Below are positions 1-33,401 of a DNA stretch of 42,110 nucleotides, piece by piece. Below the pieces are notes generated by a model, which saw nothing but the letters and a program-made list of their open reading frames with translations, did not search any database and was not told the origin of the DNA. Location: the IMG/VR virus record IMGVR_UViG_2541047875_000007, positions 1-42,110 of that record; one strand, 5' to 3'. The DNA is from a virus. Lineage: Duplodnaviria > Heunggongvirae > Uroviricota > Caudoviricetes. A program made the position numbers and the translations under genes. Positions within the stretch are counted from its first letter, which is position 1; each line of letters starts with the position of its first letter.

Positions 1-1158
1 ATGCTCACCGTTAAGCAGATTGAAGCAGCAAAGCCGAAAGAAAAACCATACCGCCTACTCGATGGTAATGGCCTGTACCTTTATGTCCCTGTGTCAGGGA
101 AAAAGGTATGGCAGCTTCGCTACAAGATTGACGGTAAGGAGAAAATCCTGACCGTAGGAAAATATCCGCTTATGACTTTGCAGGAGGCAAGGGATAAAGC
201 ATGGACTGCGAGGAAAGACATCTCGGTTGGCATCGATCCGGTAAAAGCGAAAAAGGCTTCGTCTAACAACAATTCCTTTAGTGCGATTTACAAGGAATGG
301 TACGAGCACAAGAAGCAAGTCTGGTCAGTAGGCTATGCAACTGAACTTGCCAAAATGTTTGATGACGACATTTTACCCATCATCGGCGGTCTTGAGATTC
401 AGGATATTGAGCCGATGCAACTGCTGGAAGTAATCCGCAGATTTGAAGATCGCGGTGCAATGGAGCGAGCCAACAAAGCCCGCAGAAGATGCGGCGAGGT
501 TTTTCGTTACGCTATTGTCACCGGAAGGGCTAAATATAACCCGGCACCTGACCTTGCAGACGCCATGAAAGGATACCGCAAGAAGAACTTCCCGTTTCTT
601 CCAGCAGACCAGATCCCTGCATTCAACAAAGCACTGGCAACATTTTCAGGAAGCATCGTATCGCTCATTGCGACCAAAGTTTTACGCTACACAGCCCTAA
701 GAACGAAAGAGCTTCGTTCCATGCAATGGAAGAACGTCGATTTTGAAAACAGGATTATCACCATCGACGCCAGTGTGATGAAGGGGCGAAAAATTCATGT
801 GGTTCCTATGTCAGACCAGGTGATTGAACTTCTCACTACGCTAAGCTCAATCACTAAACCAGTGTCAGAGTTTGTTTTTGCCGGGCGCAACGATAAGAAG
901 AAGCCAATCTGCGAGAACGCGGTATTGCTTGTGATCAAACAAATTGGCTATGAAGGGCTGGAAAGCGGTCACGGATTCAGGCATGAATTCAGCACGATTA
1001 TGAACGAGCACGAATGGCCTGCTGATGCTATTGAAGTGCAACTGGCACATGCCAACGGCGGATCTGTGCGCGGTATTTACAACCATGCGCAATATCTCGA
1101 TAAGCGCAGGGAGATGATGCAGTGGTGGGCGGACTGGATTGATGAGAAGGTGGAGTGA
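1..1158 (+). CDS. int: Tyrosine integrase of the tRNA-associated P4/CP4-57-like family; ATG at window position 1
   Basis: 385-aa ORF; N-terminus MLTVKQIEAAKPKEKPYRLLDGNGLYLYV typical of the P4-type integrase arm-binding domain; C-terminal catalytic region with R...HxxR...Y pattern. Resembles the argW-associated prophage integrase (intS-like) from memory. Confidence 0.9.
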   Translation: MLTVKQIEAAKPKEKPYRLLDGNGLYLYVPVSGKKVWQLRYKIDGKEKILTVGKYPLMTLQEARDKAWTARKDISVGIDPVKAKKASSNNNSFSAIYKEWYEHKKQVWSVGYATELAKMFDDDILPIIGGLEIQDIEPMQLLEVIRRFEDRGAMERANKARRRCGEVFRYAIVTGRAKYNPAPDLADAMKGYRKKNFPFLPADQIPAFNKALATFSGSIVSLIATKVLRYTALRTKELRSMQWKNVDFENRIITIDASVMKGRKIHVVPMSDQVIELLTTLSSITKPVSEFVFAGRNDKKKPICENAVLLVIKQIGYEGLESGHGFRHEFSTIMNEHEWPADAIEVQLAHANGGSVRGIYNHAQYLDKRREMMQWWADWIDEKVE

Positions 1159-1355: not shown

Positions 1356-3839
1356 CTACATTGCCATTAATATAAACATAGCCAATTCGTCATAACGAAT
1401 TCCGTAGCGTCCACCTGCTTTTTTTACAAGAATCATATTTCCTGTTTTATATTGAGAATAAATTTTCTCACCTGTATCAGGATCTGTGCTCTCTTCAGTT
1501 ATCACCTCTTCATCCCATACGTCTGGCCATTCATCGTAACACCAAAAAGCATATTGCTCAGGATTTAAACCACGCTTTCTAAGAATATCTCCTACGGTTT
1601 GAGCGCCAACTCCAAAATGATACCTTGATAACTCCAATCCTTTAAAATTAATCGACTCATTAAACCTGAACTTGCATATAATTCCCTTTATTTCCAGCGC
1701 AGCATCACGCTCTGCCTGAGTAATGTCATATATTGTTTTAAGTGTTTCATCTGATGTGCTTATAGTCCCGGATGCAGAATAAATCTGAGCCCATCTAAAT
1801 GATGGTGCACCAAGAGATTTGCTGTTATCAATAATTGGTGAAAAATTACCTTTAATGGCAATATTTCCAGAGTCGCCGAATATATTAATAACTGTAGAGT
1901 CATCACCATGGTTTTTTACGCTTAAGTTTCTTGATGAAATATTTATATCTTTGTTATATCCACTAACATTAATCCATCTTTTACCATCAATGTGATACCC
2001 GTAAATATTTCCGTTTGATTGTTCGTCAGGTGACTCTCTAAGAACAATAGCATCTACTCCAGACGACCATTGTATTTTTGTATCTGTAGGCCTCCAGTTC
2101 TTTATAATGAACGAACCATCAGTAAACTCCGTTTTTATTTGTCTATTGTCTACAAATGCGTCTCTTGGTTTAAACTCACTTGTGTTAACGCTGCTCTGAA
2201 GATCAGAAGCAAAAAATCTAAGATTTCCTGTATAACCCTGAGTCTCGGTCAGGTTATACGCAATCATAATTCCATTTTCAAACTCAGATGATGTTATTTT
2301 AACATCACGGCAATCACCAAAAATGCAATTTCCTTTATCAAATGTTGTTTGAGCTTTGAATTTATCAAACCTTAAATTACGAACAGGGAAACCATCAACC
2401 TCTAATGCAAAGGATGCAGGAAGGCCAAAGTATTCTGATGGCTTACCTGATGTATGATCAAGAGTAGTGGCTACTGTATTCTCAAAAACAGTCCCGCTAA
2501 AATTATTACCAATTGACGGAAACCTGATTACACTTATTGTACCTTGTATTTCAGGAGAAATACCAGATAGTGTGATGTTAGTTCCATCAAATGATGCATC
2601 TGAATACGTATATACTGATTCACTGCCAGCAATTTTAAACTGTTTAACTGAAGTTATTCTCATCGACTTTTTATGTTTAAATGTCACTGAGCTTTCAGTA
2701 TTACTTACAAGATCAATCTGAGGGCTATTCCTTATCGCGATTCCTGACTGGACATAAACGTTATTAAAGTGCGTTTTTTCAGGATTTCCCTTCATTGAAA
2801 GGCTCCCGTCATTTTCTGTCAGTAGTAGTCCTTTTACCCTCCAATAGCCGACAATCTGTACGTTATCAATAACTGAATCACAGCTATCGTATACATGCAA
2901 CCCTATATCCCAGTTATCACCCAATGAATAAGAATCAGGGTTATTGTATCCTTCAATACCATTTTTACTTACCATTATTCTCAGATTGCGTAACTGTGAT
3001 GCCCTGTTGATACTAACAGCTACGCTCATGGCTTTTGGTGTAGCAGGAGTAACACCTACAGAATCTTCATTCGTAAACTCAGTGAACTTACAAGATATCC
3101 CTTCAACAATTTTAACCGGTCTTTCATTAGAGATGTTAAAAAAATATTTGTTTTTTTCTCCATCACCAGTAAATACAAGATGGGTTCCTTTACTCCAACT
3201 TTTTAATAATCTTTCAGGCGCTGGTCTATATGTATCCCAATAATCAATGCCAGATCCAACCAGTGAACACCCCTCAGGAATGTTAATATTCTTCTTGATG
3301 ATGCATATTCCTTCCGGAATTGTTATAACCGACCTTCCAGAGTTTAAAGCTTTAATAAAAGCATCTGAATCATCTGTTTCCCCATCTATTTTTGCTCCCC
3401 ACCCTCTAACATCTCCACAATCTCTCCATCGTGCCATCTGCAACTCAGGATATTTTTTAGCGCCATCTGGATCTTCTAATTGCTGCCGTAGCTGATCGGG
3501 GTCATACTTCAGCACATTGGGAAAATAAAACTGCTGCGCACCATACGCATCATAAACAGCCATAGAATGGCCTTGCACGGTAACGAATTTGGCAATCTGT
3601 CCGTTATATACCGGATATCCGGCAGCGTTAATGATGATTGGTTGCGAAACAGGAACGTGAGAGCCGTCTTCGTTCTCTACATAAACCTGAATCTGGTTTT
3701 CTGGATTTACCGGGTCAGTGTCAATTTTACCGATATAAATTTTGCCATTGGCATTTGCTTTAAACGAGCGAGCTAAAGTAAATAACTGACTTGGTTGTGA
3801 AACAACTACGTTGTATAATTGTTCTGGCATAATAAACAT
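1356..3839 (-). CDS. Tailspike protein: P22 gp9-type N-terminal head-binding domain, divergent central beta-helix receptor-binding domain, C-terminal intramolecular-chaperone (peptidase S74-like) domain
   Basis: 827-aa ORF. N-terminus [11 protein letters not shown]...[40 protein letters not shown]...[14 protein letters not shown] matches the P22/HK620/Sf6 tailspike head-binding domain. C-terminal region contains TSTSDETLK...[13 protein letters not shown]...[10 protein letters not shown] resembling the S74 chaperone motif. Confidence 0.9.
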
Positions 3840-3852
3840 TCCGGAGAAAATA

Positions 3853-4353
3853 ATGAGTAAGAGACGTCACGAGGTAGTAACTCGGGAGCGCCTTATGGAG
3901 GTTCTCGATTACAATAAAGAAACAGGAATTTTCACTTGGAAAAAGAAATTAAGCGCCAGAGGTGCTGTTGGGAAAGTTGCTGGCACAATTTCTTATGGAT
4001 ATAACGCAATTAATATTGATGGCGTAAGATATTTTGCACATAGACTTGCCTGGCTGTATGTATATGGCGAATGGCCCAAACAAGAGATTGACCACATTGA
4101 TAGAAACAGAAGAAATAACGCAATCTCAAACCTTAGGGATGTCAGCAGAGTCGTAAATGCATTAAATGTCGGACCTCGAAATAGCAATGCTGGAATCAAG
4201 GGGGTAACTTTCTGTCAAGCCAGAAATCAATGGCAAGCTCAGATAAATGTCTCAGGTAAAAACATAACCCTTGGGAGATTCAACACCATTGATGAAGCGG
4301 CTATAGCTTATAAGGCAGCAAACATGGTTGCTGACCATCTGTTGAGTAGGTAA
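3853..4353 (+). CDS. HNH endonuclease with C-terminal AP2-like DNA-binding domain (homing-endonuclease-like)
   Basis: ORF-track ORF 3811-4353 trimmed to ATG 3853 preceded by GGAG. Contains [13 protein letters not shown]...[18 protein letters not shown] (HNH) and GVTF...QWQAQI...[16 protein letters not shown] (AP2-like). Confidence 0.7.
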
Positions 4354-4420
4354 TGTCTGTCATTTAATTTGCTCCAGATACAAGGAATCGCCGCAGCATG
4401 GCTACGGTGAATTTTGGGCA

Positions 4421-4445
4421 TAAAAAAACCCAGCCGAAGCTGGGT
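4421..4445 (-). terminator. Intrinsic terminator downstream of ant (minus strand)
   Basis: Stem ACCCAGC/GCTGGGT with loop CGAA; followed on the minus strand by TTTTTTTAT. Confidence 0.55.
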
Positions 4446-4463
4446 CGTTGCGTTGGTTATCTG

Positions 4464-5366
4464 TCAGTAGTTATGTACTGAAGGAGGTAATTCTTTATTC
4501 TTAAGTCTCATCCATGCGGAAAGATTCGTTGGTCCGTCTGGCTCATTGATATCAACATCTCGTGTGTGATTGATTAAAACGTCTCTCGCCATTCCGATAA
4601 CATACGAGAACTCATGACCGTAGTCGTAGCATCTGCCTGAATAGTTCGATTGAATTTGTTTTAGCGCCGGATACAGTTCGCGGAATAATGCCTGTGAGCG
4701 GTTGGCATAATCCCATAACCATACAAGGCTGTTTGCTTCTTTTGCAGAAAGCTCGTTGGTTTTCTTCTCTTGTTTTCCGATGAACTCGCCTTCAAGCACT
4801 ACCCTGTGGATGTACTCTACTGCTTGCGGTATCTGAGATGAATCAAGCTCTTCAATACTTTCCACGTTGAAACGCTGATGAATCATTGCATAAGCTTCTG
4901 GGTACATTAGATGCTTTTTGCTGACTAGCATATTTACAGCATCACGAAGCGGAGTCCTGTCATCAACAGATGTTTTCTTACGTGCATTTTCTGCCTTTCC
5001 CTTCGTCCAGTAGTCATGCAGCACAGTAAAGCATTCTTCCTGGTACTGAATCAGTTTATCGCGAATGTCAGCACGAACTTTCTCAGGGTTGATGCTGAAC
5101 AGCCATCCATTTAACTTCTTCAAAGGAAGGCAGAGTAGCTTACGAAGCTTACCATCAGCGGCAACCATGTTCATATGAACACAGTTGAATTTGCTAATCT
5201 GCTTCATGAGTTTTGTTTGCTGCGTTGACCAGCTCATTCCAAGGTTTTCAACGATTGGCTTCATCGCAACATATGCAACTCCGGCAGTCATGGCGGTGAT
5301 AATCTGCTGACCATTGAAAGGTACGTAAGAGGTGTTCACTGCTTCTAAAATTGCTATACTATTCAT
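4464..5366 (-). CDS. ant: Antirepressor Ant (P22 immI)
   Basis: ORF-track 322-aa ORF begins at a TTG; the first ATG (5366, [10 protein letters not shown]...) gives 300 aa. Lies immediately downstream of arc as in P22 immI. Confidence 0.85.
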
Positions 5367-5434
5367 GTTGGTTTTTCTCCACGAATTTACTGACAACAGA
5401 AGCCCTGACTGTTCCCGCAGTTGGGGCTTCAACT

Positions 5435-5596
5435 TTACGCGCCAATACGCCCTTCCTTCTTAAAGCTGTCCATTACTCTCTGATAAATCTCAGAGTTAAC
5501 AGACCGACCATTCTCTTCCGCCACCTTGCGTACCAAATCCAATACTTCTTTAGGCCACCGCAAATTGAACTGCGGCATTTTGCTCATTCCTTTCAT
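5435..5596 (-). CDS. arc: Arc repressor
   Basis: 53-aa product [53 protein letters not shown], near-identical to P22 Arc from memory; GAGGTGA before the ATG. Confidence 0.9.
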
Positions 5597-5610
5597 GTTC
5601 ACCTCACAAT

Positions 5611-5660
5611 ATAGGTCCACGGTGGACCTATTGAGAATATAGTAGAGTGCTTCTATCATG
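5611..5660. promoter_or_regulatory. immI operator region: Mnt operator palindrome (5611-5631) and Arc operator (5640-5660) between the divergent arc/ant and mnt promoters
   Basis: ATAGGTCCACGGTGGACCTAT perfect palindrome; TAGTAGAGTGCTTCTATCAT with inverted TAGA half-sites; both match remembered P22 Omnt and Oarc. Confidence 0.7.
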
Positions 5661-5686
5661 TCAATACACTAACTTGGAGTGATGGC

Positions 5687-5941
5687 ATGGCTAGAGATGA
5701 TCCGCACTTTAACTTCCGCATGCCTTTGGAAGTAAGAGAAAAATTAAAATACAGAGCAGAGTCAAATGGTAGATCAATGAACTCAGAATTGTTGCAAATC
5801 GTCCAAGATGCTCTATCGAGACCATCTCCTGTAAAAGGTTATCGCAATGAAGCTGAACGATTAGCCGAGATGCAGGCTGAACAGTTCAAGTCTGTGGTAT
5901 TTGAGACACTTAAAAACATGTATGGCAAGGATGCAAAATGA
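5687..5941 (+). CDS. mnt: Mnt repressor (maintenance of lysogeny)
   Basis: 84-aa product MARDDPHFNFRMPLEVREKLKYRAESNGRSMNSELLQIVQDAL, Arc/MetJ-like ribbon-helix-helix N-terminus as in P22 Mnt; GGAG 7 nt upstream. Confidence 0.9.
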   Translation: MARDDPHFNFRMPLEVREKLKYRAESNGRSMNSELLQIVQDALSRPSPVKGYRNEAERLAEMQAEQFKSVVFETLKNMYGKDAK

Positions 5942-6519
5942 TCGATTACAACCCAGCAAAAAAAGAAATCATCGCAGCTAAAAAGTGCCTAGAGCAGATG
6001 AAATCATCTACAAACCATGATGATTTTGAAATGCACTGGCGAGAATGTCTTGGGCATATAGAAAAGTCTTTCAGTAAGTTGCTCTGTGCAACAAAGCCGG
6101 TTAGTGGAAAATTTAGCAGCCACTTCAACCAAAAGTTCATGCTTAGAAAAACAGACAAAACACTTGCTTACCTTCACCAAGCAAGAAATGCTGATCATCA
6201 TTCCACTATGGAAATCTCAAAACTTGAACCTCCTTATACTACTCTTGGGGCATTTCCTGGAGCAAGAAGCCATTATATTAAAGAGTTAATCATTGATTCA
6301 ACAGGGAAAATAGCAAAATACGAAGGCGACCCTATGATAGTTGAGTTTCATCCAGCAACAACTATGCCTATAACCGTAAGAAACCAAGGCAAAGATTATC
6401 CACCTCCAACAGAACATCTTGGCGAAAAGCTTGTTGATATACATCCATCTGTTCTTGCCCATCTCGGTATACAATTTTATGAAAAATGGATAGATGAGTC
6501 GTGTGCAACGTTTAGATAG
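5938..6519 (+). CDS. Hypothetical protein (193 aa), translationally coupled to mnt
   Basis: ATG overlaps the mnt stop (ATGA); AAGGA 6 nt upstream; no family recognised. Confidence 0.7.
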   Translation: MIDYNPAKKEIIAAKKCLEQMKSSTNHDDFEMHWRECLGHIEKSFSKLLCATKPVSGKFSSHFNQKFMLRKTDKTLAYLHQARNADHHSTMEISKLEPPYTTLGAFPGARSHYIKELIIDSTGKIAKYEGDPMIVEFHPATTMPITVRNQGKDYPPPTEHLGEKLVDIHPSVLAHLGIQFYEKWIDESCATFR

Positions 6520-6748
6520 TTATTTTTGATAATTTCAAGTATTTCCTCTTGACTTTGATTTACCCAAACGTGATCACACTCATGAAACCAGATTATGCTT
6601 CCTGTTTCGCCTTGTGCAATATAGGTGATCATGTTTTCATTAACAATTATTACTGAGTTATCATGTGCGTAATTTAGTTTTATCAATTCGCATATCCTAT
6701 CGTGACAAAGTAACTAGAAAAACTAAAGAGGTTGGTGTGTCTGATTCT

Positions 6749-7231
6749 ATGAGTTACGCTGTGCTAGTTGCCGCAACTCTATTTATGGGGATAGGGTTGC
6801 AGATTGCGTGGTTCTTTTTTTCTAGTTTTATTAAACGCAAAAGAATTGAATCAAGGATATCTGAGATTTCTATTGCCATAGGGAAAAATGCTGAAAATCC
6901 AGAGAATGAGACCTGCGCACTTAATTACCTTAAAGAAAAGTTTTCCCCTGAAAAATTTGAAAATAGAATTACTGATGCTCTTGGATTGGTAATATCAGTA
7001 ATTCATATGCCACTAAGTTTGCTGATAACAGTGTGGTACTTCGCCATGATCGCCGGAAGAATATTTGGTTTCATGAATATAGAGCCTGTAGTTCTTTGGG
7101 TTCCAATGATACTGCAACTGTTGTTAAGCGTTGCTATCTTTATTTTTTCTGTTTTTATAAAAATTGTCTTTGGAAGATACCCCGGAGAAGCTAAGGGATT
7201 TAATAAAGAATTCATAAAAACTATAAAATAA
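6749..7231 (+). CDS. Multi-pass membrane protein at the position of P22 sieA (possible superinfection exclusion); start uncertain
   Basis: Several hydrophobic segments ([58 protein letters not shown]). Alternative GTG start at 6737 has a better-spaced AAGAGG than ATG 6749. Confidence 0.55.
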
Positions 7232-7253
7232 ATGCCGTCCTTGGCTTACAGTG

Positions 7254-9095
7254 CTACTGCCGTGTCGCTTCGTTAGCTAAGAGCGGGCGCACGGCAGTAG
7301 CAGCCTGATTTAGCGCTCTTTCATAAGCTGGCGTTCCAGCTTTAGTGTTTGCCAGACGTAAGAGCGCATTCCTTGCTGCTTTGGACTCATACAAACGCAT
7401 CATTGCACCAAAACCAGCCTCAATCCCCATTGATACTCCAAGAGTCGCAGTTGCGCCAATCGTCCTTATCCTGTTGGCTTGTGATTGCCCCGTCTGAGTT
7501 ACTACATTTGCGGTGTCTGACCTTGCTGTTTGCTGTAGAACTTCATGAAGAGCATCGAGCTCTTTCATGTGCTTTCCAGAAAAAATAGTGTTGTAAATTT
7601 CACCGCCTGACTGAGATTTAAGCTTATTAACTTCAGTGATGAACTTGGCTGGAGAGTCACCGGCCTTTTCCGCTATTTTGCTGACGTAAGCTGCACGCAT
7701 AGCATCTTTCCCTTTATCATCCAATGCGCTCCAGATTCGTTTCACGTCAGATGGTTTTCTGCTTAATACAACGGTATTTATAAGTTCAGGACTGGCTTCA
7801 CTGCTTGCCTTGTTGAGCTTGTTGGCAATGTTTTTATTAAGCACCTTATTATAAACGTTTGCATAATCGGAATTTGCTTTAAGGTATTTTGCTGCGTCTG
7901 ATGCACCGAGGTTTTTAGCAACTGCGTTACGAAGGTCTTTTGACATTGCATTCTCTACCATATTGGTAGCTGCTTTTGCCTGGTTGGGGAAGACCATAGC
8001 ATCTCCCTGAACATTAGATCTAAATGCTGTTCTGTGCTGACGCAAGAGATCAAACGTAACATCCAAATCAGTTGCAGGGTTTGCTAATTCTTCGCGTAGG
8101 TTACGCAAGGATGTAAGCAGGCTTTGATTGGCAGACGTCCCAAGCCGTTCCTGTCTTGCGATCGCTGTATTCAGAGCATTCATAGTGTTTGTGGTATCAA
8201 CTGCGGCATTCCCCATTTTATTGGTGACGTCATTGATAACAGCGCCAGCGGCATCCTTCCGTCCCCTTAACGTGGTGGTCAGAGATTTCACCACATCATC
8301 CGGGTTGTACTCACCAAAACGGTCAAAATAATTACTTACCAACTTACTACGCGTTGCATATTGCTCCGCTCGCTTTGAGCCTGTCCCGAGCAAAGCCCCC
8401 TCGGCATCCTGAGTAAGGCCGCGAGTGAAAGCATTTTTCGGCGGGATAACATCAGATGTCATTGGTGTCACGCCAATCGATTCTGATGTGGCAATTTTCT
8501 TCGCCACTTCTGGCGCAATATCACCTTTTATAGCCGTTATTCCACGCCCTATTCCCTTTGCTGCTGCGGAAAGAACCCCCTGAGCGGCAAGGTTAACTCC
8601 GGCATTTTTAGCTGCATTTTGTGCGAAATCGCCTTTCTGATTTGCGGCCTCTGCCAGTGATCCAATAGCCATGCTTCCTGCCGTTCCAACTCCTGGAACT
8701 AAATACCCACCAATTGTTTCACCGGCTTGTGCGTATGGGTCTGTCGGTCTGTCTACTGGACGATAAACATCATCCAAAACCTTGGGTCCACCAAGCCCAT
8801 GACTGATTGCATTAATCAGACTTGCGCCGCCCTGCAATACGTCAAATGGTATGTTTACCAGACCACGACCAGCCTGCTCTGCAATTTGCCCTGCACTTTG
8901 ACCACCTGTGAGCCAATCGCCAGCTTGTTGCATCAATGATGGTTCTTCACGTGCTGGTTCATTATTGGCCTGATTAACTGTTTGTTGCTGAACAGCCTGA
9001 CCAGCAAAATACTCATCAATGGCGGTGCCAATATCTTCCGTGCTCGTACCATCAGGGAAGGTAAATGTCTTACCGTTTGCAGTTACTTTCATCAT
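7254..9095 (-). CDS. Ejection (DNA-transfer) protein gp16
   Basis: 613-aa ORF in the conserved P22 order gp7-gp20-gp16; start overlaps the gp20 stop. Confidence 0.85.
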
Positions 9096-10567
9096 TCCAC
9101 CGTAAATTGAATGCCTGATTTTGAGGTATATGATCCGGATTGACTCTGCTGCTGTTGGGTATTTGTCGGTTGTTGGCTATTGCTCTGTTGTTGACTATTT
9201 GCAGCACTTGAAACCACCAAAGCATCATAAACGCGACCAGACTGACCACGTAATGAGTTATATTGGCCCTGCATTTTTCGCATTTTTGTTTCAGTAGCAG
9301 CCTTGGAATCACCGGGCTGAGGCAGGTACATTTTGGAATACTCCTGCATCTCTGGCAGAGTAATTGCTGCACCTGTTTCTGGGCGCAAAATTGCATACAA
9401 GGCGTCTCTCGCATTTACCATATATTGCTGCTCCGCTGGTGATAGGCTTAAATTTGCAATAGTCCCATCACCAAGAGAGCGATTTATTAATGCAACTCGC
9501 TTAGGGTCAATGCTTTTACTAAGCTGATTCATTGAGTCCATTGAATCTTTTAATCGCAAAGCAAATCCTGCCGCCTTCTTGGAACCCTCATTAGCCTTAT
9601 CTATGATGCTTTGCGCTTGTGGCAAGCTAATTGGTTTAATGCCATCACCAGATATAGGTTGGTTTAGTTTTCCGGCTTCCTCGCTGCCATCGGTGTAATA
9701 CTTAGTTACCGAGCCATCAGGATTGGTTTCAACCTTAAGTAATTTCTTAGCATTGGGATTAATTCCCGCCGCTGCCGCAAATGCCGCTGCACCATCTGGA
9801 TCCGCCTTTAACATTTGCGCGTACTGATTGTAATTCTGCATTGCGGCTGTTGGTGCATATGCTGACGTTAACGCATTTGCTCGGCTAATATCCTGCCCTC
9901 TCGCCTGAAGTGCTTCGCTGGCCTGATTGCTGCGGATTGTCTCTGCCAGTCTGCCTCGGTCAATCTCACGACCAGCTATCTTGTCCTGAACAGCAAACGC
10001 CTTTTCTGGCCCAAGCGCACCGAGAGACATAGTAGTCAGCATGTGTGATAACTGCTCTGGATTCTGGATACCTGTCTGAATCATCCAGTCAGCATTCGCA
10101 CCAACGCGATTTAACCTGTCCTTGTTGTCAGTAATGAATTTACTGTAGGCTTCCGGTCCCTGAGAAAGAGCGACGTTAGCCCTCATGGCTAAATCGCCCA
10201 TATCGTTACGTTGCTGATCATTAAGACCGGAAAACGCCTGTTGTGCCTGTGCAACAAACGCTGGATTTTCCTGGGCAAACTTAAATAGTCCCGATGGATC
10301 ACCAGAAGCCCATGCATCAGCGTGAACCTTATTGAACGCACTAATCGCTTTCTGTTGCTGTTCCTGATTGTAAATATCAGCAACTCCAGCCAGACCACGT
10401 AACGCGGTCAGACCAACGTTATTTGCACCTGAGCGAGCCAACTCATTGTTTTCGCGGATCAGACCAAGCGTTGCGTTAATGTCGCTTGCTTTTGGCGCAT
10501 TCTCATTTTGCGCACCAATGCCAGCCAGAAAACCACCAGAATTAATACCCTGTTGCCACGTAGCCAT
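9092..10567 (-). CDS. Ejection protein gp20
   Basis: 491-aa ORF, size and position match P22 gp20. Confidence 0.85.
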
Positions 10568-10577
10568 TGATTACCCC

Positions 10578-11270
10578 TTAAAACAGTGAACCAAGAAGAC
10601 CAAGACCGCCGCCAACAGCGGCACCAATACCAGTACCAATACCGGGAACAATGCTGCCAAGCTGTGCTCCAGCAATTGCTCCAGAGGCAGCCCCGCCTAT
10701 TGCAGATTGAAGGCCGGAAGGTCTATTAGCGTTTGCCGCCGCCAGTGCCGCGCTTTGCTGTGAAATCTGGCTCATGTTGTTGGCATATGTTTGCCCGGCG
10801 TTTGCCTGCCCCTGAAGAGCGCCAAGACCAATATTTGCCAGATTCTGGTAGTTGTTCATCTGGCCAGACAGCCACTGCTGACCAAGCGTTGGTGCGATTG
10901 TTGCTAACTGATTACTGGTTGCGGTGGAACCTAATCCACCTGTTGCTTCCGCTGCCGCCAGACTCTGATAGCGCGCCTGACCAGCAAGGTCTTTGTACTG
11001 CTGAGAGTTGTAATACTGGTTAAGCGCCTGACCTTGCCCCTCCAGAGACGATAAGTTCTCGAGGCTGCCGACATACTTCTCAGCCAGAGGAGTAAACGGT
11101 TTCAGGTTGTTCATGATGGTGTTGAACTGCTGATTTTGCAGGTCTGCGGAATACTTCTGGGCTTCTGCTGCATACTTTGCGCTTTTATCGGCTCCACCTT
11201 TCCCGCCTTTTTCAGGGCAATAAGGTTCCTCGCCGCGCAGTTTTCTGCCCAGCTTAAATGCATATAACAT
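10578..11270 (-). CDS. Ejection protein gp7
   Basis: 230-aa ORF with Gly/Ala-rich hydrophobic C-terminus; size and position match P22 gp7. Confidence 0.85.
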   Translation of the reverse strand: MLYAFKLGRKLRGEEPYCPEKGGKGGADKSAKYAAEAQKYSADLQNQQFNTIMNNLKPFTPLAEKYVGSLENLSSLEGQGQALNQYYNSQQYKDLAGQARYQSLAAAEATGGLGSTATSNQLATIAPTLGQQWLSGQMNNYQNLANIGLGALQGQANAGQTYANNMSQISQQSAALAAANANRPSGLQSAIGGAASGAIAGAQLGSIVPGIGTGIGAAVGGGLGLLGSLF

Positions 11271-26981: not shown

Positions 26982-27388
26982 TCGTACCTCCTGTCGGTAA
27001 ATCTGACACCCTGACCAATAGCCCAGGCTGTTGTGTACTCAATCAGACTTGCCATACGCTTCACACTCATCTGCGCGCTGCTTTCGCGGATGTTGACGTA
27101 TTCGCCTTCAAGCCCGGGCAAAACATCAGCTTCCTGCTTTGTTGCCACTGCATGACCGCTGATCAACAAAACCTTCCATTGTTCTGGTTTTAACCATTTA
27201 TCGCGCCACTGAACTTGCCTGGCGATATCTGCGACCATCGCGTGAAATTTTGCGTTCTGGTCAAGATTTCGCTTGTAGTCAGTAATGCGGATGGTGACTG
27301 GCTTGTCTTTATCGAGTGGTGTTGCGAGGATGGCGTTGATTGCGGCTTGCTGTTGTTGCTTACTCCTGAGGAAAATTGTCTGTTTCAT
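26978..27388 (-). CDS. ninB: NinB recombination protein (Orf family)
   Basis: 136 aa; ...[25 protein letters not shown]... resembles lambda NinB. Confidence 0.85.
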
Positions 27389-27396
27389 GGAATTCC

Positions 27397-27609
27397 TCAG
27401 TATGCGTAAAGGCTGTATCCATTTTTATTTGTCCTGGTGCCATAGCCATATAGGCTCCAGCCATCCTGTTTTCTCTCACCAAAAATATGCTTGCGGTATT
27501 CTTCCTGCTGGCGTCTCCATATTTCCATCATGTCTGGCTGGTTCTTTTCTCGCATTTTTCGGATCTGCTCAAGGATGAACTCTATTTGCTGCTGATTTGT
27601 CATGCTCAC
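27397..27609 (-). CDS. Hypothetical protein (70 aa)
   Basis: ORF between the helicase and ninB; no family recognised. Confidence 0.5.
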   Translation of the reverse strand: MSMTNQQQIEFILEQIRKMREKNQPDMMEIWRRQQEEYRKHIFGERKQDGWSLYGYGTRTNKNGYSLYAY

Positions 27610-27613
27610 TCCT

Positions 27614-27829
27614 TCACTTTAAATCCAGGTTCCGGATAATTCTGTCACACTGAAAATCAGTATCGATTTTAACCAACCGGCGAAGAACGCGGTCACGCGG
27701 ATAGCTCCGTGGCTTAGGGGCGTTTTTCTGTCTCTCGCCAGTCGGAAGTCTGGAAGCAGACCAGTACCGCTTTGCACGACCAATGTTCTCCTGAAAGTCG
27801 GCGCGGACAAGCTCAGCTATCGTACTCAT
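27614..27829 (-). CDS. Hypothetical protein (71 aa) at the lambda ren position
   Basis: ATG overlaps the stop of the upstream 30-aa ORF; basic protein, no family recognised. Confidence 0.5.
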   Translation of the reverse strand: MSTIAELVRADFQENIGRAKRYWSASRLPTGERQKNAPKPRSYPRDRVLRRLVKIDTDFQCDRIIRNLDLK

Positions 27830-27918
27830 TTCTTAAAGCCTCCAATTACTCTCCCCCAAATAAAAAGGCCTGCGATTACCAGCAGGCCTGTTATTAGCTC
27901 AGTGATGTAGATGGTCAT
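27826..27918 (-). CDS. Putative 30-aa hydrophobic peptide, translationally coupled between the helicase and the next gene
   Basis: [30 protein letters not shown]; ATG overlaps the helicase stop (ATGA) and its stop overlaps the next ATG; not in the ORF track. Confidence 0.4.
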
Positions 27919-29291
27919 ACGTCAGCCCCTTGTGCATATCGTCTGCCACGCGCAGCAGGTGCATTTGATGCTGTGCAAATCTGTCTGGCTTCATCCTGGT
28001 CACATGCAACAAAGTGTCCGTTGCAGAACCGCTGGTAAACCGTACCAAGTGAGCCAAAACGGTTTTTCGTCACAATGATTTCAGCAAATGGCGCGGCGCT
28101 ACTGTTCTCGTCATATACAGCTTCCCGATAGAGCATGATGATTGAGTCTGCGTCCTGTTCAATGCTTCCTGAATCACGCAAATCTGCGTTTGTCGGGCGT
28201 TTGTTTGGTCGCTTCTCAACATCGCGCGAAAGCTGACTCAGGGAGATAACAGGCGTTTTCAGGTCTTTCGCCATCGCCTTCAGGCTTCCGGAGATGTGAG
28301 CAATTGCGAGGTCGTTGCGATCTGCTTTCGGCTTCTCAATCAGGCCAAGATAATCCACCATGATGAGTGACAGGTTTGGATTTTCCTGTTTGTGCCGTTC
28401 TGCGATTGAGCGTATTTCTTCGACCGATAACCGCGAGGCATCGACTACCCATACATCCAAATCTGCAAGCTGACTCATGCCGTTAGCAACGCGCGCCCAG
28501 CCTTCGTCATCCATCGATGCAGGATTTCGCAGCACACTAACCGACATCCTCCCGGCGTTGGCAATACTTCGCTCTGCAATCTGCAATGCGCTCATTTCCA
28601 TTGAGAAAATCAACACTCCGCGCCGGACGTCAGAACCAGGAATAACGCGGCTTGCAACGCCTTCGGCAATCTTCAGCGCCAGTTCGGTTTTACCCATACC
28701 GGGACGAGCGGCGATAATCACCAGGTCTTCTGCGTTCATCCCTCCGGTGATGGCGTCAAGTTCGTCGATTCCGGTCTTCAGGGTATCTGACTCTTCTCCG
28801 TTCCTCAGACGCCTGTCAAGCGTGTCAGTGTAGTCAGTGATGATTTCCCCTAACCGTACCGGTTTAACCTCGTCACGGGGCTTTCTGATGGCTGAAAGAC
28901 GCTTTACAAGTTCATCCATCGCCTGACTCGATGCGTCGATGGTTCCGCTCTGAATTGGTTCACGCATTTCATCCATGATTTCCAGCACCAGACGGCGGTG
29001 ATAGTTATCCGCGACCATTCCGGCATATCCCTTCAGGTTTGCGGCACTCGGGCAGTTTTTGCTGGTCATCAGGATTGACGTGAAATGCTCCTCTCCGCAC
29101 GCCTCGGCAACCATCAGCGCGTCGATTAAATTTCTGTTTCGCGCCTGCTTGCGGATAACCTCGAAGGCTTTCCGGTAGAGCGGAATTGAAAACGCTTCCG
29201 GCTCCAGCGTTGCCAGAACGTCGCTGGCGGTTGGAGTTAATCCACCAATCAGCAGGCCACCGATAACGCTCGCTTCGATATCCTGTCTCAT
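27915..29291 (-). CDS. Replicative DNA helicase (DnaB family; P22 gene 12-like)
   Basis: 458 aa; Walker A GMGKTE, DnaB-type motifs, typical DnaB N-terminal domain. Confidence 0.9.
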
Positions 29292-30235
29292 GCAATCCCC
29301 CTGTCTGCAAACTTCCCTTCCCGTACTCCCGTTAACGAATCTTCCCTCAACAGGTAATCAAAATCAGCCGTCCAGCCCGTGTCGTTGTCTCCGAAGTAAA
29401 ACGGCTTGGCCTGATGCACAAACGCCCTGACATACGCTCTGAAACCGTCCACGTTTGGCGTTTTCAGTTGCGGGATGATTTTCTTCAGGCGGCGTTTGCG
29501 TTTCTCGTTGACTGCAACAGCATGTGGAAGTCTGTCACCGACTTCGGTGTTGTAGGCGTTCAGGAAGGATTCGTAGTCGATTCGTTCTGCCTTGCGACGT
29601 TCAGGTTTAACCTGCCCATCGCCGCCCCCATTGGGGGGTAGGGGGGTATTATTTATATTCTTGTTAATACCTTCTTGTTCATGATGTGCGGTTGTTTGTG
29701 CGGCTTCATGTGCGCTTTCATGTGCGGAATGTGCGCTGAAAGCTGCGCCATTACTGGCTTCGTCATGTGCGGCATCATGTGCGGTTGTTTGTGCGGCATC
29801 ATGTGCGGGTAAATTGTCCATTTTTTGAGCATATTCATGGTAATTTGTGATGGTGATCACACGACCTTTTTGCTTCTCTCCATCAATGGAGATCATCCCT
29901 TCTTTCACAAAAACCTGAAGCATCCGCTCAACCTGATCACGGCTTGCTGGCTTGCCATGTCTGTCGCATAACTGAAGACCTAAATCAGCTGCTGTCACAA
30001 CCAGTTGACCGGGTTGCAGATGCCATTCATGACCTTTGAAATTCGCTTTGTATGGCTTTCTGGCGGCATTCAGGAGAAGGTTTTCCCACAGGGTGCGAAG
30101 ATAAACATCTTTCGCCCATGACTGTTTCAGAATGCTCCGGTACAACGGAATGTAACCAGTTTTCTGGTTCTCCATCCTGTTGCTCCTGCGCTCGTGTGCG
30201 GCGCTGAAATCGTAGATTTTTGCTGTATTGCTCAT
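29288..30235 (-). CDS. Replication initiator (lambda O / P22 gene 18-like) with internal His/Ala-rich low-complexity linker
   Basis: 315 aa; N-terminus [10 protein letters not shown]... resembles the lambda O N-terminus; linker [40 protein letters not shown] is encoded by the iteron repeats. Confidence 0.8.
29646..29810 (-). repeat. Putative origin of replication: about 9 direct repeats of a TGTGCG(G/C) core inside the initiator gene, flanked by an AT-rich segment (29646-29672)
   Basis: Repeats at roughly 10-12-bp spacing (CATCATGTGCGGTTGTTTGTGCGGC occurs twice); adjacent TATTATTTATATTCTTGTTAATACC; arrangement parallels lambda ori within O. Confidence 0.6.
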
Positions 30236-30237
30236 AA

Positions 30238-30510
30238 CTACCTGCCTTGACGAAAGACCTTAAGAACATCGTTAAACTGACTTACGGATATGTCTTCTTT
30301 GAGAAGCTTTTCCAGAAATGCGTTTGGAATGAACGTATATCCCTCCTCTTTTGGTAGAGACGGGAGCAACGCCCTCGCCTCAGCCTTCAGAAGCTCAGTT
30401 CTGGCAACTTTCACAAAAGAGATTTGAGTTCTTTCATCAATGGAACGAAGGAAGCGCAAACGCTTAGCTTCTTTGTGTGTATCAGGTGGATTAAAGCCTT
30501 TGTTTCGCAT
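30238..30510 (-). CDS. Hypothetical protein (90 aa) between cII and the replication initiator
   Basis: ORF-track ORF 30238-30783 trimmed to ATG 30510 (GAGGT 7 nt upstream); the upstream part of the long ORF overlaps cII in another frame. Confidence 0.55.
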   Translation of the reverse strand: MRNKGFNPPDTHKEAKRLRFLRSIDERTQISFVKVARTELLKAEARALLPSLPKEEGYTFIPNAFLEKLLKEDISVSQFNDVLKVFRQGR

Positions 30511-30532
30511 ATAATTACCTCGTTGGATGTTG

Positions 30533-30826
30533 TTAAAATTCCATTTGTATTTGATCAGAACGCTCGGTTGCCGCCGGGCGTTTTTTATTGGTGAGAATCG
30601 AAGCAACTTGTCGTGCCAATCGAGCCATGTCGTCGTCAACGACGCCCCATTCAAGAACAGCAAGCAGCATTGAGAACTTTGGAATCCAGTCCCTCTTCCA
30701 CCTGCTGATCTGCGACTTATCAACTCCCACAGCTTCCGCTGTCTTCTCAGTTCCAAGCATTGCGATTTTGTTAAGCAACGCACTCTCGATTCTTAGAGCC
30801 TCGTTGCGTTTGTTTGCACGAACCAT
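30533..30826 (-). CDS. cII: Transcriptional activator CII (lambda-type)
   Basis: 97 aa from ATG 30826: MVRANKRNEALRIESALLNKIAMLGTEKTAEAVGVDKSQISRWKRDWIPKF... matches lambda CII. Confidence 0.95.
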   Translation of the reverse strand: MVRANKRNEALRIESALLNKIAMLGTEKTAEAVGVDKSQISRWKRDWIPKFSMLLAVLEWGVVDDDMARLARQVASILTNKKRPAATERSDQIQMEF

Positions 30827-30905
30827 ATGTAAGTATTTCCTTAGATAACAATTGATTGAATGTATGCAAATAAATGCATACACCATAGGTGTGGTTTAAT
30901 TTGAT

Positions 30906-30937
30906 GCCCTTTTTCAGGGCTGTGATGTGTAAGAGCG
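30906..30937 (-). promoter_or_regulatory. nutR: boxA (30930-30937) and boxB (30906-30920)
   Basis: Minus strand CGCTCTTA ... GCCCTGAAAAAGGGC, identical to remembered lambda nutR boxA/boxB; immediately downstream of cro. Confidence 0.8.
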
Positions 30938-30945
30938 AGAATGTC

Positions 30946-31161
30946 TTAAGCGGCTTTGTGTTCCGGCGGGAACACGTCATCAAGACTGACTTTTGCGCCT
31001 AACTTGTTTAGGCACTCAACAAGAGCACGGCATGTTTTAAGGTCTGGGAAGCGACGACCAGATTCCCAATGTCCGATAGCTCCCTGTGTGCATCCAACTG
31101 CCTTAGCAAGTGTTGTTTGAGAGATATTCAGTGACTCTCGATATTTTCGTAGGTTGCTCAT
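30946..31161 (-). CDS. cro: Cro-like repressor (HTH, XRE family)
   Basis: 71 aa from ATG 31161 (GGAGG upstream); helix-turn-helix ISQTTLAKAVGCTQGAIGHWESG; divergent from cI. Confidence 0.8.
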   Translation of the reverse strand: MSNLRKYRESLNISQTTLAKAVGCTQGAIGHWESGRRFPDLKTCRALVECLNKLGAKVSLDDVFPPEHKAA

Positions 31162-31273
31162 ATGCCCTCCATAGTAACCATGAAACAATAATACGATATG
31201 TACTTTTAGAATGCAAACAAAAAAATACATCTTGTGCATGGATGGTTTTAGTACAGAGCGTAATAATAATGGT
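31162..31273. promoter_or_regulatory. OR region: PR (minus; -35 TTGCAT at 31211-31216, -10 TATTAT at 31188-31193), putative PRM for leaderless cI, and two copies of a 12-bp operator motif (31192-31203, 31251-31262)
   Basis: Motif GTACA-N3-CGTA occurs at the PR -10/spacer (reverse orientation), near the PRM -10, and again at PL (32072-32083). Confidence 0.6.
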
Positions 31274-31933
31274 ATGAAAATGAAATGGTATGAACTGGCT
31301 AGATCCAGAATGAAAGAGCTCGGCATAACTCAAGAGAGGTTAGCTGAAGAGCTTGGTATGACGCAGGGTGGAATTGGTCACTGGTTGCGCGGATCTCGTC
31401 ATCCATCTCTTGACGAGATTGGTGTGGTGTTTAAATACCTTGGTATTGATAACGTCTCATTCAACCACGACGGTACATTTTCACCTGTTGGCGAATACTC
31501 TCTGCCCCCGTTAAAAAAACAATATGAGTACCCTGTTTTTTCTCATGTTCAGGCCGGGATGTTCTCGCCTGAGCTTAGAACCTTTACCAAAGGTGATGCG
31601 GAGAGATGGGTCAGCACAACCAAAAAAGCCAGTGATTGTGCGTTCTGGCTTGAAGTTGAAGGTAATTCCATGACCGCGCCAACAGGATCCAAGCCAAGCT
31701 TTCCTGACGGGATGTTAATTCTCGTTGACCCTGAGCAGGCTGTTGAGCCAGGTGATTTCTGCATAGCCAGACTTGGTGGTGACGAGTTTACCTTCAAGAA
31801 ACTGATCAGGGATAGCGGTCAGGTGTTCCTACAGCCACTAAACCCGCAATATCCAATGATTCCATGCAATGATAGCTGTTCCGTAGTAGGGAAAGTTATC
31901 GCCAGCCAGTGGCCTGAAGAGACATTTAGTTAA
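31274..31933 (+). CDS. cI: CI-type prophage repressor (HTH plus LexA-like S24 peptidase domain); start uncertain (ATG 31274 or 31280)
   Basis: [28 protein letters not shown]; C-terminal S24 features (AG cleavage-site context, GNSM, and a Lys-containing DEFTFKKL segment). The track's upstream ATG 31211 lies inside the PR -35. Confidence 0.85.
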
Positions 31934-31963
31934 CAGCCTCACAACTCTAAAATACACAACAAT

Positions 31964-31993
31964 AACCCGACCTTAGCGTCGGGTTTTCTTTTT
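31964..31993 (+). terminator. Intrinsic terminator downstream of cI
   Basis: AACCCGAC-CTTAGC-GTCGGGTT hairpin followed by TTTCTTTTT. Confidence 0.6.
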
Positions 31994-32058
31994 CCAAAAT
32001 ATAAACCCATTAAATACAAAGCGTTATAAAAAACTAATTATATTTAGAACATTTTGTA

Positions 32059-32094
32059 TTGACTCAATAAAGTACAAATCGTACTATTTAGCCA
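32059..32094 (+). promoter_or_regulatory. PL promoter with overlapping OL operator (32072-32083)
   Basis: TTGACT - 17 bp - TACTAT, then ATCAGCAGGACGCACT matching the remembered lambda PL transcript start; operator GTACAAATCGTA in the spacer. Confidence 0.7.
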
Positions 32095-32125
32095 TCAGCA
32101 GGACGCACTAACCACCATGAAGGTG

Positions 32126-32156
32126 AGGCTCTTAAAAATTAAGCCCTGAAGAAGGG
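32126..32156 (+). promoter_or_regulatory. nutL: boxA (32126-32133, GGCTCTTA) and boxB (32142-32156, GCCCTGAAGAAGGGC)
   Basis: boxB identical to remembered lambda nutL boxB; boxA differs from CGCTCTTA at one position. Confidence 0.85.
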
Positions 32157-32340
32157 CGGCATTCAAAGCAGAAAGCTTTGGGGTGTGGTGAAGCTCAACG
32201 GCGAGCTAGGGAATAGTTTTGCGGTGAAGATTCTAGACAACTAACCGCAGGATGCGCGTAACCCAATCGGCAGCGCACCGATGGAAGCTGGTTCGACTCC
32301 AGCCACCACACCACCAAAGCTAACTGACAGGAGAATCCAG

Positions 32341-32667
32341 ATGGATGCACAAACACGCCGCCGCGAACGTCGCGCAGAGAAACAGGCTCAATGGAAAGCA
32401 GCAAATCCCCTGTTGGTTGGGGTAAACGCAAAACCAGTTAACCGCCCTATTCTCTCGCTGAATCGCAAACCGAAATCACGAGTAGAAAGCGCACTGAATC
32501 CGATAGACCTTACGGTGCTGGCTGAATACCACGAACAGATTGAAAGCAACCTGCAACGTATTGAGCGCAAGAATCAGCGCACATGGTACAGCAAGCCACG
32601 CAGTGAAATGGGTGTGACTTGTGTTGGTCGCCAGAAAATGAAATTAGGCAGCAAACCACTTATTTGA
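32341..32667 (+). CDS. N: Antiterminator N (lambda-type)
   Basis: From ATG 32341: MDAQTRRRERRAEKQAQWKAANPLLVGVNAKPVNRPILSLNRKPKSRVESALNPIDLTVLAEYHEQIES... matches lambda N including the Arg-rich motif. Confidence 0.95.
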   Translation: MDAQTRRRERRAEKQAQWKAANPLLVGVNAKPVNRPILSLNRKPKSRVESALNPIDLTVLAEYHEQIESNLQRIERKNQRTWYSKPRSEMGVTCVGRQKMKLGSKPLI

Positions 32668-32675
32668 GGTGATAT

Positions 32676-32864
32676 ATGGAACGTAAATTTGAAATTTGGT
32701 TGGATTCCGGCGCAAACATTCATTCTTGCAAAAAGACAGTTGTAACACTCGATGATCTTGGCTTATCCGAGAATGAGTGGAATGAAATGGATCAGGACGA
32801 AAAAGACGAAAACATGCGTGATGTAGCATTTGAAACGCTTGATTGGGGATGGAAGGAAATTTAA
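32676..32864 (+). CDS. Hypothetical acidic protein (62 aa) immediately downstream of N
   Basis: ATG with GAGGTGA upstream; no family recognised. Confidence 0.6.
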   Translation: MERKFEIWLDSGANIHSCKKTVVTLDDLGLSENEWNEMDQDEKDENMRDVAFETLDWGWKEI

Positions 32865-32869
32865 GTGAT

Positions 32870-32895
32870 GGCCGCATAGTCGGCCTTTATTTTTG
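32870..32895 (+). terminator. Candidate intrinsic terminator in the early-left operon
   Basis: GGCCG-CATAGT-CGGCC followed by TTTATTTTT. Confidence 0.5.
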
Positions 32896-32916
32896 GCATA
32901 AACAACAGAGGCTAAC

Positions 32917-33213: not shown

Positions 33214-33401
33214 TGAAAGTAAAAATAACTGCTTCTAATACCAGTTTTGTTAGTGTTGGTGATATTACAGAAGTAATAACAAACCATGATGGAACACAAG
33301 TTATGTGGTCTGATTTTTGTAAAAGATATGAGCGAGTCACTTGGTGTAAACTCGTATGGGGCGTCGAATACGAAGAATTACCTGAAATGCATGACGAATA
33401 A
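33213..33401 (+). CDS. Hypothetical protein (62 aa)
   Basis: Start overlaps the preceding stop (TAATG). Confidence 0.55.
   Translation: MKVKITASNTSFVSVGDITEVITNHDGTQVMWSDFCKRYERVTWCKLVWGVEYEELPEMHDE

Follow-up and report, generated by a model that had tools for sequence, protein, structure and literature searches.

A predicted solitary HEPN-like ribonuclease gene between mnt and sieA in the immI region of a P22-like Escherichia coli prophage

In the present study, a window of 42,110 nucleotides (the whole stretch of DNA that was analysed) from a P22-like prophage in E. coli was examined around its immI region, which holds mnt, a gene of 193 codons that we call ORF193, and sieA, all on the (+) strand. 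The promoter scan placed Pmnt at 5631-5659 (+; TTGAGA-17-TATCAT), a site shared in part with the divergent Pant promoter and with the operators for Mnt and Arc. In the P22 record BK000583 the mnt promoter annotation covers an identical sequence, and the Pmnt/Pant/operator region as a whole matches P22 almost base for base. The maintenance repressor gene mnt (5687-5941, +) encodes a ribbon-helix-helix (RHH) domain followed by the Mnt C-terminal domain (Pfam Arc, E 2.8e-27; Repressor_Mnt, E 3.4e-11), and its product is 79% identical to P22 Mnt. The sar RNA (5367-5434) was the sole Rfam match within the window. The tailspike gene (1356-3839) and gp16 (7254-9095) both lie on the (-) strand, so that sieA has the homologue of gene 16 on one side and that of gene 9 on the other, the order known from P22. 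The GC content of the ORF193-sieA block is 35-39% vs 44-50% in the flanks, and such AT-richness is usual in prophage cargo. The original prediction had described two uncharacterised genes on the lysogen side of immI in the same orientation as mnt. Their position and orientation were confirmed and the locus is indeed a sensible spot for seeking a defence gene, but only ORF193 is new; the locus thus consists of one known gene (sieA) and one new gene.

The membrane gene was at first delimited by the mechanical list of open reading frames, which puts it at 6665-7231 with a GTG start. The start that corresponds to that of P22 sieA lies further on, at the GTG of position 6737, and yields a protein of 164 aa (6737-7231, +). 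Over its full length this protein is identical to P22 SieA at 150 of 164 residues (91%, E 2e-113), and it also matches the 'SieA-like' phrog_7745 (E 2e-108). SieA is an inner-membrane exclusion protein that has been characterised experimentally, and FxRYPxEAxxFNK is a cytoplasmic motif conserved in it (Leavitt et al. 2024, PMC10883804); here this family motif was matched at residues 145-157. The Kyte-Doolittle hydropathy plot contains three or four strongly hydrophobic segments (approximately residues 5-32, 78-113 and 112-150), by which SieA is predicted to be a multi-pass inner-membrane protein. The expectation of a multi-pass membrane protein at the P22 sieA position was therefore borne out by the hydropathy segments and by the gene 16/9 order, while the description of it as uncharacterised gives way to the 91% identity over 164/164 residues. 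Judged by its sequence, the gene is sieA, an ordinary type-A superinfection-exclusion gene, and by analogy its product would stop P22-like phages from delivering their DNA. The likeness to P22 extends to the GTG start, the Shine-Dalgarno site, the FxRYPxEAxxFNK motif and the slot between gene 16 and immI. The differences are that the host is E. coli here and Salmonella in P22, and that the ORF193 module stands in place of PsieA and of the mnt terminator before it, both of which are missing here. The promoter scan gave no clear sigma-70 promoter for sieA in the spacer that precedes it.

This spacer (6520-6736) is AT-rich and its last 18 nt or so carry the sieA Shine-Dalgarno site. Its length is 217 bp when sieA is taken to start at the GTG of position 6737; measured up to the first ATG it is 229 bp, which agrees with the 230 bp given for it earlier. 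Alignment with P22 gave no similarity, the terminator scan found no terminator-like site in the 217 bp, and folding of the spacer RNA gave nothing unusual (z-score -0.29). The spacer accompanies ORF193 and is retained in prophages that have another downstream gene. Related prophages keep ORF193 together with the spacer and exchange sieA for other small ORFs, so the two genes do not form one fixed module.

An antisense ORF noticed across the spacer (6477-6686, -) is indeed present, with 69 codons and a TTG start, and on its homology and substitutions it is most likely non-coding. If it encoded a small product after all, perhaps an antitoxin or a regulator partnering ORF193, this would agree with the length of 69 codons amid AT-rich DNA, with the AGGA located 8 nt 5' of the TTG, and with its prediction by some gene callers, in full or in a shorter form of 51 aa. 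Its homologues, however, are confined to the same locus, where they are at least 94% identical, and none was found beyond it. Among related prophages it has 8 substitutions, all 8 non-synonymous and 0 synonymous, and one of them changes W to a premature stop; furthermore, the downstream genes at distant ORF193 loci are unrelated to it. That it is a functional gene is thus very improbable, and the antisense ORF was dropped as a candidate for lack of outside homologues and because all of its substitutions are non-synonymous.

ORF193 (5938-6519, +) is an intact frame of 193 codons and is the predicted ribonuclease gene of the title. Its ATG (5938-5940) overlaps the TGA of mnt (5939-5941) by 4 nt in an ATGA (5938-5941), and direct reading of the sequence places a Shine-Dalgarno-like AAGGA (5927-5931, +) 6 nt ahead of this start codon, still within the 3' end of mnt; a 193-aa frame that starts on the mnt stop codon with a good ribosome-binding site had been predicted, and both elements were found. 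That ORF193 shares a transcript with mnt is strongly suggested by the conservation of Pmnt, by the overlap of 4 nt and by the Shine-Dalgarno site. In P22, the same place is occupied by orf59a, the mnt terminator and PsieA. The two genes have in common the slot downstream of mnt and the strand, whereas their sequences are unrelated: orf59a encodes 59 aa vs 193 aa for ORF193, and it lies approximately 100 bp from mnt with a terminator after it, whereas ORF193 overlaps mnt.

ORF193 is a real protein-coding gene under purifying selection, because related prophages differ in it by 12 synonymous vs 7 non-synonymous substitutions. It is carried as an annotated CDS in RefSeq E. coli genomes and was found in 21 of 5,426 complete E. 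coli genomes; searches of 50,697 deposited phage records by blastn and tblastn gave no match. The family itself is large. With a cut-off of E<=1e-3 an exhaustive search collected 1,772 cluster representatives, of which 1,297 also pass E<=1e-10; these are stand-alone proteins of roughly 190-200 aa, called 'hypothetical' in every source and assigned a Pfam domain in none. Searches with ORF193 against Pfam, NCBIfam, PADLOC and PHROGs returned only the unannotated phrog_23516, and the same databases gave no significant match to a described family for 132 individual members or for the family and sub-clade consensus sequences. PDB sequence searches with profiles of 8 and 132 sequences produced chance-level matches only, Foldseek against viral predicted structures gave nothing significant, and no description of ORF193 was found in the literature on the accession and on immI cargo genes. 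The protein without a recognisable family therefore kept that description, with no Pfam, NCBIfam, PADLOC or PDB match.

The genomic contexts of the homologues were compared, and further loci were sought with a narrow alignment, biased towards members carrying QARNAD. The homologues are solitary and mostly occupy prophage cargo positions beside tailspike, lysis, tail or immunity genes. Neighbour clustering across about 25 distinct loci detected no shared partner gene; small convergent downstream genes of distant loci were considered as partners and dropped, being related neither among themselves nor to the antisense ORF. A homologue at locus L064 (62% identical) has the same ATGA junction after a different RHH gene. 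An RHH gene followed by a toxin gene is a classic layout, with the 4-nt ATGA overlap now seen behind two different RHH genes, and HEPN toxins are common among toxin-antitoxin systems (PMC3710099). It may therefore be asked whether ORF193 encodes the toxic half of a type II toxin-antitoxin or addiction system with the upstream RHH protein (Mnt here, another in L064) as antitoxin. Its task would then be to keep the prophage stable, or to make cell fate depend on the state of immI, instead of sensing foreign phages. The second RHH protein, however, is a Mnt-like immI paralogue that also lies upstream of mnt in another locus (L026), and therefore common descent and exchange at gene boundaries explain the shared layout better. 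Moreover, an RHH gene with the ATGA overlap occurs only in the P22-like immI loci (the window and L064) and is absent from all other contexts examined; outside them, family members have no conserved upstream gene at all, and Mnt already has a complete and well-known repressor function. We regard an addiction pair as quite unlikely.

Homologues of ORF193 are also carried by unrelated prophage types without immI (P2-like, siphovirus-like and T7-capsid-like), and some of them adjoin IS elements and restriction-modification (R-M) genes. In a type I R-M operon, one homologue is found between hsdS and hsdR, beside a Fic/DOC gene. These contexts bear on another reading, by which ORF193, as an RNase or a protein that binds RNA, would act for the prophage itself and have no anti-phage role; it might, for instance, process transcripts running through immI (late-operon read-through or the ant, sar and mnt RNAs), or change the physiology of the host as a lysogenic-conversion factor. 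The location of immI within the late operon, where RNA regulation already operates (the sar RNA), would suit such a protein; many prophage cargo genes have functions other than defence, and a classical defence island was seen in only one of about 14 distinct contexts. The homologues away from immI nevertheless argue against an immI-specific role, and the solitary HEPN proteins of prophages have so far been abortive-infection effectors (PMC13043305). A role confined to the prophage itself is, in our estimation, unlikely.

The residues conserved in the family were counted in 132 diverse members, which share only about 25-45% identity with the protein of the window. Five of them are invariant (W34, Y78, R83, H88 and P157) and three more are near-invariant (R70, D73 and H160). 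R83 and H88 form an R-x4-H motif (R83-N-A-D-H-H88; 6184-6201, +), a putative catalytic pair. HEPN domains are defined by an Rx4-6H motif with a polar residue, mostly N, D or H, after the R; the motif stands at the end of core helix 3, where the connection to helix 4 starts, inserts between helices 2 and 3 are frequent, and helix 2 has an acidic residue, often within Ex3[KR] (Anantharaman et al. 2013, PMC3710099). The ORF193 family has the conserved Rx4-6H with R83 and H88 invariant, and the residue after the R is N in 53%, D in 24%, H in 11% and G in 11% of members, which makes N, D or H 88%. The structure model of ORF193 is a confident one (pLDDT 96.6). It has a helix at residues 27-51, an extra helix at 53-72, a helix at 74-88 that ends at H88, the beta insert and a closing helix at 170-192, so that the motif comes at the end of core helix 3 in an up-down bundle of helices and an insert lies between helices 2 and 3; both the place of the motif and this insert agree with the HEPN description. 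For the acidic residue of helix 2, the window protein reads E31-x3-R35. Position 31 is acidic in 74% of members, while K or R stands at position 35 in only 43% and the two occur together in 53 of 132; E42, acidic in 65%, is an alternative candidate.

Two further elements follow the motif. The beta insert, of about 75 residues, comes directly after R-x4-H and its eight strands occupy residues 94-154 in the secondary structure of the model (6217-6399, +), between the motif and the last helix; we infer that it is a candidate sensor or partner-binding domain. The second is a P156-P157-x-x-H160-L-G162 loop (6403-6423, +) before the last helix, with P157 invariant, H160 present in 95% and G162 in 86% of members, and H160 is possibly an additional active-site residue.

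The relation to described HEPN families was also examined by profile. The RT-associated HEPN model of PADLOC (RTasHEPN) gave weak recurrent matches to 8 of 132 members (best E 0.0019), and it was the only PADLOC model matched repeatedly by the family. In the one case for which match coordinates were taken, a sub-clade consensus, residues 61-101 aligned with positions 61-101 of the 148 in the profile (E 0.037), which covers the region of the motif. No described HEPN family was matched significantly at normal thresholds in searches of Pfam, NCBIfam, PADLOC and the PDB sequences, and in the structure comparison no PDB chain aligned with more than 116 of the 193 residues. ORF193 could then be a non-catalytic helical bundle that works, for example, as an adaptor or structural decoy or by inhibiting a host defence; its R...H pair would serve binding or folding, and the HEPN resemblance would be superficial. 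The want of a profile-level link to any HEPN family is in line with this, and non-catalytic HEPN-like domains do exist (PMC3710099). Against it, the invariant residues are mainly polar or aromatic (R, H, Y and W), together with the near-invariant R70, D73 and H160, in a family of this divergence, and therefore they resemble an active-site signature and not a binding surface; the motif, the residue after the R, the candidate acidic residue of helix 2 and the position of the motif also fit HEPN jointly. A non-catalytic bundle thus has, in our view, a low probability.

Our preferred reading, to which we give an even chance, is that ORF193 is a trigger-activated solo HEPN abortive-infection nuclease expressed in the lysogen and analogous to HepS. 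As a member of the HEPN superfamily, in which RNase activity depends on the R and the H and usually sits at a dimer interface, it would be a metal-independent ribonuclease, and it would be made in the lysogen off the mnt transcript by translational coupling. Until it detects some component of a superinfecting phage, a task perhaps performed by the beta insert, the protein would stay in an inactive and probably oligomeric state. Once activated, it would cleave tRNA or mRNA and the infection would be aborted, and ORF193 could in this manner act as a backup to the entry block by SieA.

A broader proposal is advanced more tentatively, and we would put its chances clearly below even. ORF193 would found a widespread and so far unrecognised HEPN branch (at least 1,700 clusters at 50% identity) of single-protein, trigger-activated abortive-infection RNases with their own beta-domain sensor after the motif; in P22-like coliphages such an enzyme would be coupled to mnt, made only under stable repression and placed as a post-entry layer behind SieA. 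If these proposals are true, a function would be obtained for an unnamed protein family with well over a thousand members, and a new single-gene anti-phage nuclease missed by PADLOC, Pfam and NCBIfam would be added to those described. As a protein of 193 residues that has no partner and offers a clear motif for mutation, it would be a compact and tractable test case, from which one could learn how a solitary HEPN enzyme stays silent until it is switched on and what role is played by a beta insert right behind the catalytic motif. The classical immI region of P22 would then carry exchangeable defence cargo on the mnt transcript. If they are false, it is still useful that the membrane protein is a plain sieA product and that the antisense ORF can be dropped.

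Among known systems, the closest in design is HepS of the Salmonella prophage Gifsy-1 (PDB 9OIJ), a solo, constitutively expressed and default-inactive HEPN abortive-infection protein, which is harmless until it is activated by a phage structural protein (Sargen et al. 2026, PMC13043305). Both are single small prophage proteins with a conserved R-x4-H and no partner gene or inhibitor, and both stand in a cargo slot expressed in the lysogen, which for ORF193 is suggested by the coupling to mnt and by Pmnt. ORF193 differs in the beta insert after the motif and in its residence in another phage type and locus, the immI of a podovirus; PDB sequence searches detected no homology between HepS (STM14_3211, PDB 9OIJ) and ORF193. 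The R-x4-H is likewise common to ORF193, the HEPN toxins of HEPN-MNT toxin-antitoxin systems (for example 7AE2, 5YEP and 8XDJ) and minimal HEPN domains (4NQF, 1WWP and 1WOL), to which its identity is only 6-12% without a profile match. In contrast to the former, ORF193 has no nucleotidyltransferase antitoxin partner, and in contrast to both it has the beta insert and the extra conserved PPxxHxG loop. The PrrC and RloC anticodon nucleases, RnlA/LsoA, AbiD/F, AbiU2 and AbiV (PMC3710099) have Pfam models that match 0 of 132 members of the ORF193 family, and they possess extra domains (ATPase and others) that ORF193 lacks. With them, ORF193 would share the metal-independent RNase chemistry that is predicted for it and the abortive-infection logic that is expected of it, and one of its homologues occupies, like prrC, the space between hsdS and hsdR in a type I R-M operon.

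In the present study, the window was found to be a P22-like (Lederbergvirus-type) E. coli prophage with the P22 gene order (integrase, tailspike, ant, arc, mnt, genes 16, 20 and 7, head genes). The prophage of E. coli Combat2C1 (NZ_CP019243.1) is 99.5% identical to it across the first 27.4 kb; the immunity and replication modules (window 27388-33400) differ, and the Combat2C1 replication gene is interrupted by IS100. The immI control region is essentially that of P22, with Pmnt, Pant and both operators nearly base-for-base the same, and the sar antisense RNA (5367-5434, plus strand; Rfam RF00262, 91 bits) lies where ant meets arc, the position it has in P22. Mnt shares 79% identity with its P22 counterpart. 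This phage group also has a second Mnt-like ribbon-helix-helix gene, of 83-87 aa; in the related locus L026 (3722-3985) it lies upstream of mnt, and in L064 (1328-1579) it replaces mnt immediately before the homologue of ORF193, the 193-aa gene that follows mnt. An HNH-endonuclease-motif gene (3895-4353, plus strand) lies between the tailspike gene and ant, oriented against the late genes, and marks a further cargo slot of the variable gene 16-gene 9 region.

The AT content of the ORF193-sieA block exceeds that of its flanks. The original prediction placed two uncharacterised genes and an antisense ORF here; the locus holds one known gene, one ORF that is probably an artefact and one gene of an unnamed family. 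The expected hydrophobic protein gene is indeed downstream of ORF193, but it is sieA (6737-7231, plus strand, GTG start at 6737), and its 164-aa product is 91% identical to P22 SieA and matches the SieA-like PHROG (E 2e-108). It carries the 13-residue motif FxRYPxEAxxFNK of SieA proteins described by Leavitt et al, who found type A or type B SieA at this position in E. coli P22-like prophages (PMC10883804). Hence, the sieA half of the finding was already known. The part differing from P22 is upstream of sieA, where similarity restarts only about 18 nt before the start codon, so P22 PsieA and the mnt terminator are gone from the window. In the 217-bp spacer (6520-6736), a terminator-like site and unusual RNA structure were looked for and neither was found; thus, read-through from Pmnt into sieA appears possible. 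A promoter-like TTGTTA-17-TATATT (6618-6646, minus strand, 9/12 matches), directed back into the ORF193 3' end, could yield an antisense RNA, and such matches occur at chance frequency in the AT-rich DNA here.

The antisense ORF (6477-6686, minus strand, 69 codons) is present as predicted, and was considered as a gene. Its database relatives come from the same locus only (at least 94% identity), and among related prophages all eight substitutions are non-synonymous, one of them a stop codon, with none synonymous, compared with 12 synonymous and 7 non-synonymous changes in ORF193. On these grounds the candidate was rejected, and it is probably not a gene.

ORF193 (5938-6519, plus strand) is a real gene, as yet unnamed. 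The noted junction with mnt was confirmed: the ORF193 start codon (ATG at 5938) and the mnt stop codon (TGA, 5939-5941) overlap, with an AAGGA site 6 nt ahead of the ATG. It is also independent of sieA. Close relatives retain ORF193 and the spacer, and in place of sieA they have small ORFs for unrelated membrane or secreted proteins, namely a single-TM ORF of about 105 aa (L018, L021, L022, L026) or an ORF of about 128 aa with a signal-peptide-like start (L024). The junction falls at the sieA Shine-Dalgarno site and GTG (window 6719-6740); since ORF193, the spacer and both these signals are kept, the point of exchange coincides precisely with the start codon.

ORF193 is labelled 'hypothetical' in RefSeq and was found in 21 of 5,426 complete E. 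coli genomes; it was absent from all deposited phage genomes and had no match in Pfam, NCBIfam, PADLOC or PDB sequences. A word-indexed search returned seven relatives only, and an exhaustive profile search 1,772 cluster representatives (E<=1e-3), almost all of them 185-205 aa long and stand-alone. None of the 91 clusters of a second profile search had a Pfam domain or a name beyond 'hypothetical protein'. In L062, a 257-aa ORF (270-1043, plus strand) without a Pfam match directly precedes the homologue (1070-1687); it contains PVARNADAF, like the family motif QARNADxH minus the histidine, and may be a degenerate tandem paralogue.

Across 132 diverse members, only W34, Y78, R83, H88 and P157 are invariant, R70, D73, A82 and H160 are nearly so, and the core motif is RKxDPLLxYLxxAR[N/D/H]A[D/E]xH. 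AlphaFold2 with a deep alignment (pLDDT 96.6, pTM 0.89) gave helices at 5-23, 27-51, 53-72, 74-88 and 170-192 and an eight-strand beta region at 94-154. In HEPN proteins, Rx4-6H stands where core helix 3 ends and the connection to helix 4 begins, R is followed by a polar residue, N, D or H, helix 2 often has an acidic residue, extra elements are frequent between helices 2 and 3, and long inserts are occasional (Anantharaman et al, PMC3710099). In ORF193, helix 74-88 is predicted to end in the R-x4-H; 88% of members have N, D or H at position 84, and position 31, a candidate for the helix-2 residue, is acidic in 74% (E31-x3-R35 in the window protein). In the model, helix 53-72 would be the additional element that separates core helix 2 from core helix 3, and the beta region would be inserted where helix 3 connects to helix 4. 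This fit makes a HEPN-type RNase likely rather than certain; a profile-level link to HEPN was looked for and not found. That the modelled helices belong to a non-catalytic protein is unlikely.

In P22-like prophages mnt always precedes ORF193 with the identical overlap, and the L064 homologue (62% identical) has the ATGA junction behind a different Mnt-like gene. Pairing with Mnt as toxin and antitoxin would suit this layout, but conservation of the partner is lacking, and such a pair is very improbable. The distant homologues examined were all solitary, with no conserved neighbour. They adjoin a tailspike at a prophage end, a tape-measure module, hipBA with an S24 repressor in a prophage, or IS1595 elements, lie between a glycosyltransferase cargo gene and a lysis cassette, or follow a P2-like tail module. 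One, in a Rhodoferax MAG (L009), belongs to a type I R-M operon (2326-10756), where it sits after hsdS and before hsdR; the gene order there is HsdM, Fic/DOC, HsdS, a 148-aa protein, a possible 50-aa ORF, the homologue and HsdR, so that several accessory genes were inserted within one R-M locus. This distribution is as expected for mobile accessory or defence cargo and falls short of proof of defence; a role in phage-internal RNA processing is improbable.

The analysis established the gene structure of ORF193, its coupling signals, conserved motif and predicted fold class, and that it occurs alone and in cargo positions. In the mechanism we propose, ORF193 would be expressed from Pmnt in the lysogen as a HEPN RNase that is inactive at rest; a component of a superinfecting phage would activate it, with the beta insert as candidate sensor, and cleavage of RNA would then abort the infection. 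As a possible new abortive-infection nuclease of the solo HEPN-like kind, ORF193 is both credible and testable. Candidates of this sort have become common, but this one goes unseen by the annotation and defence-finding tools in current use and lends itself unusually well to testing. The recently described HepS of the Salmonella prophage Gifsy-1, a HEPN protein that acts solo and is expressed constitutively, works by this logic (PMC13043305); since no relatedness between ORF193 and HepS is detectable, the likeness is not one of family membership but of mode of action.
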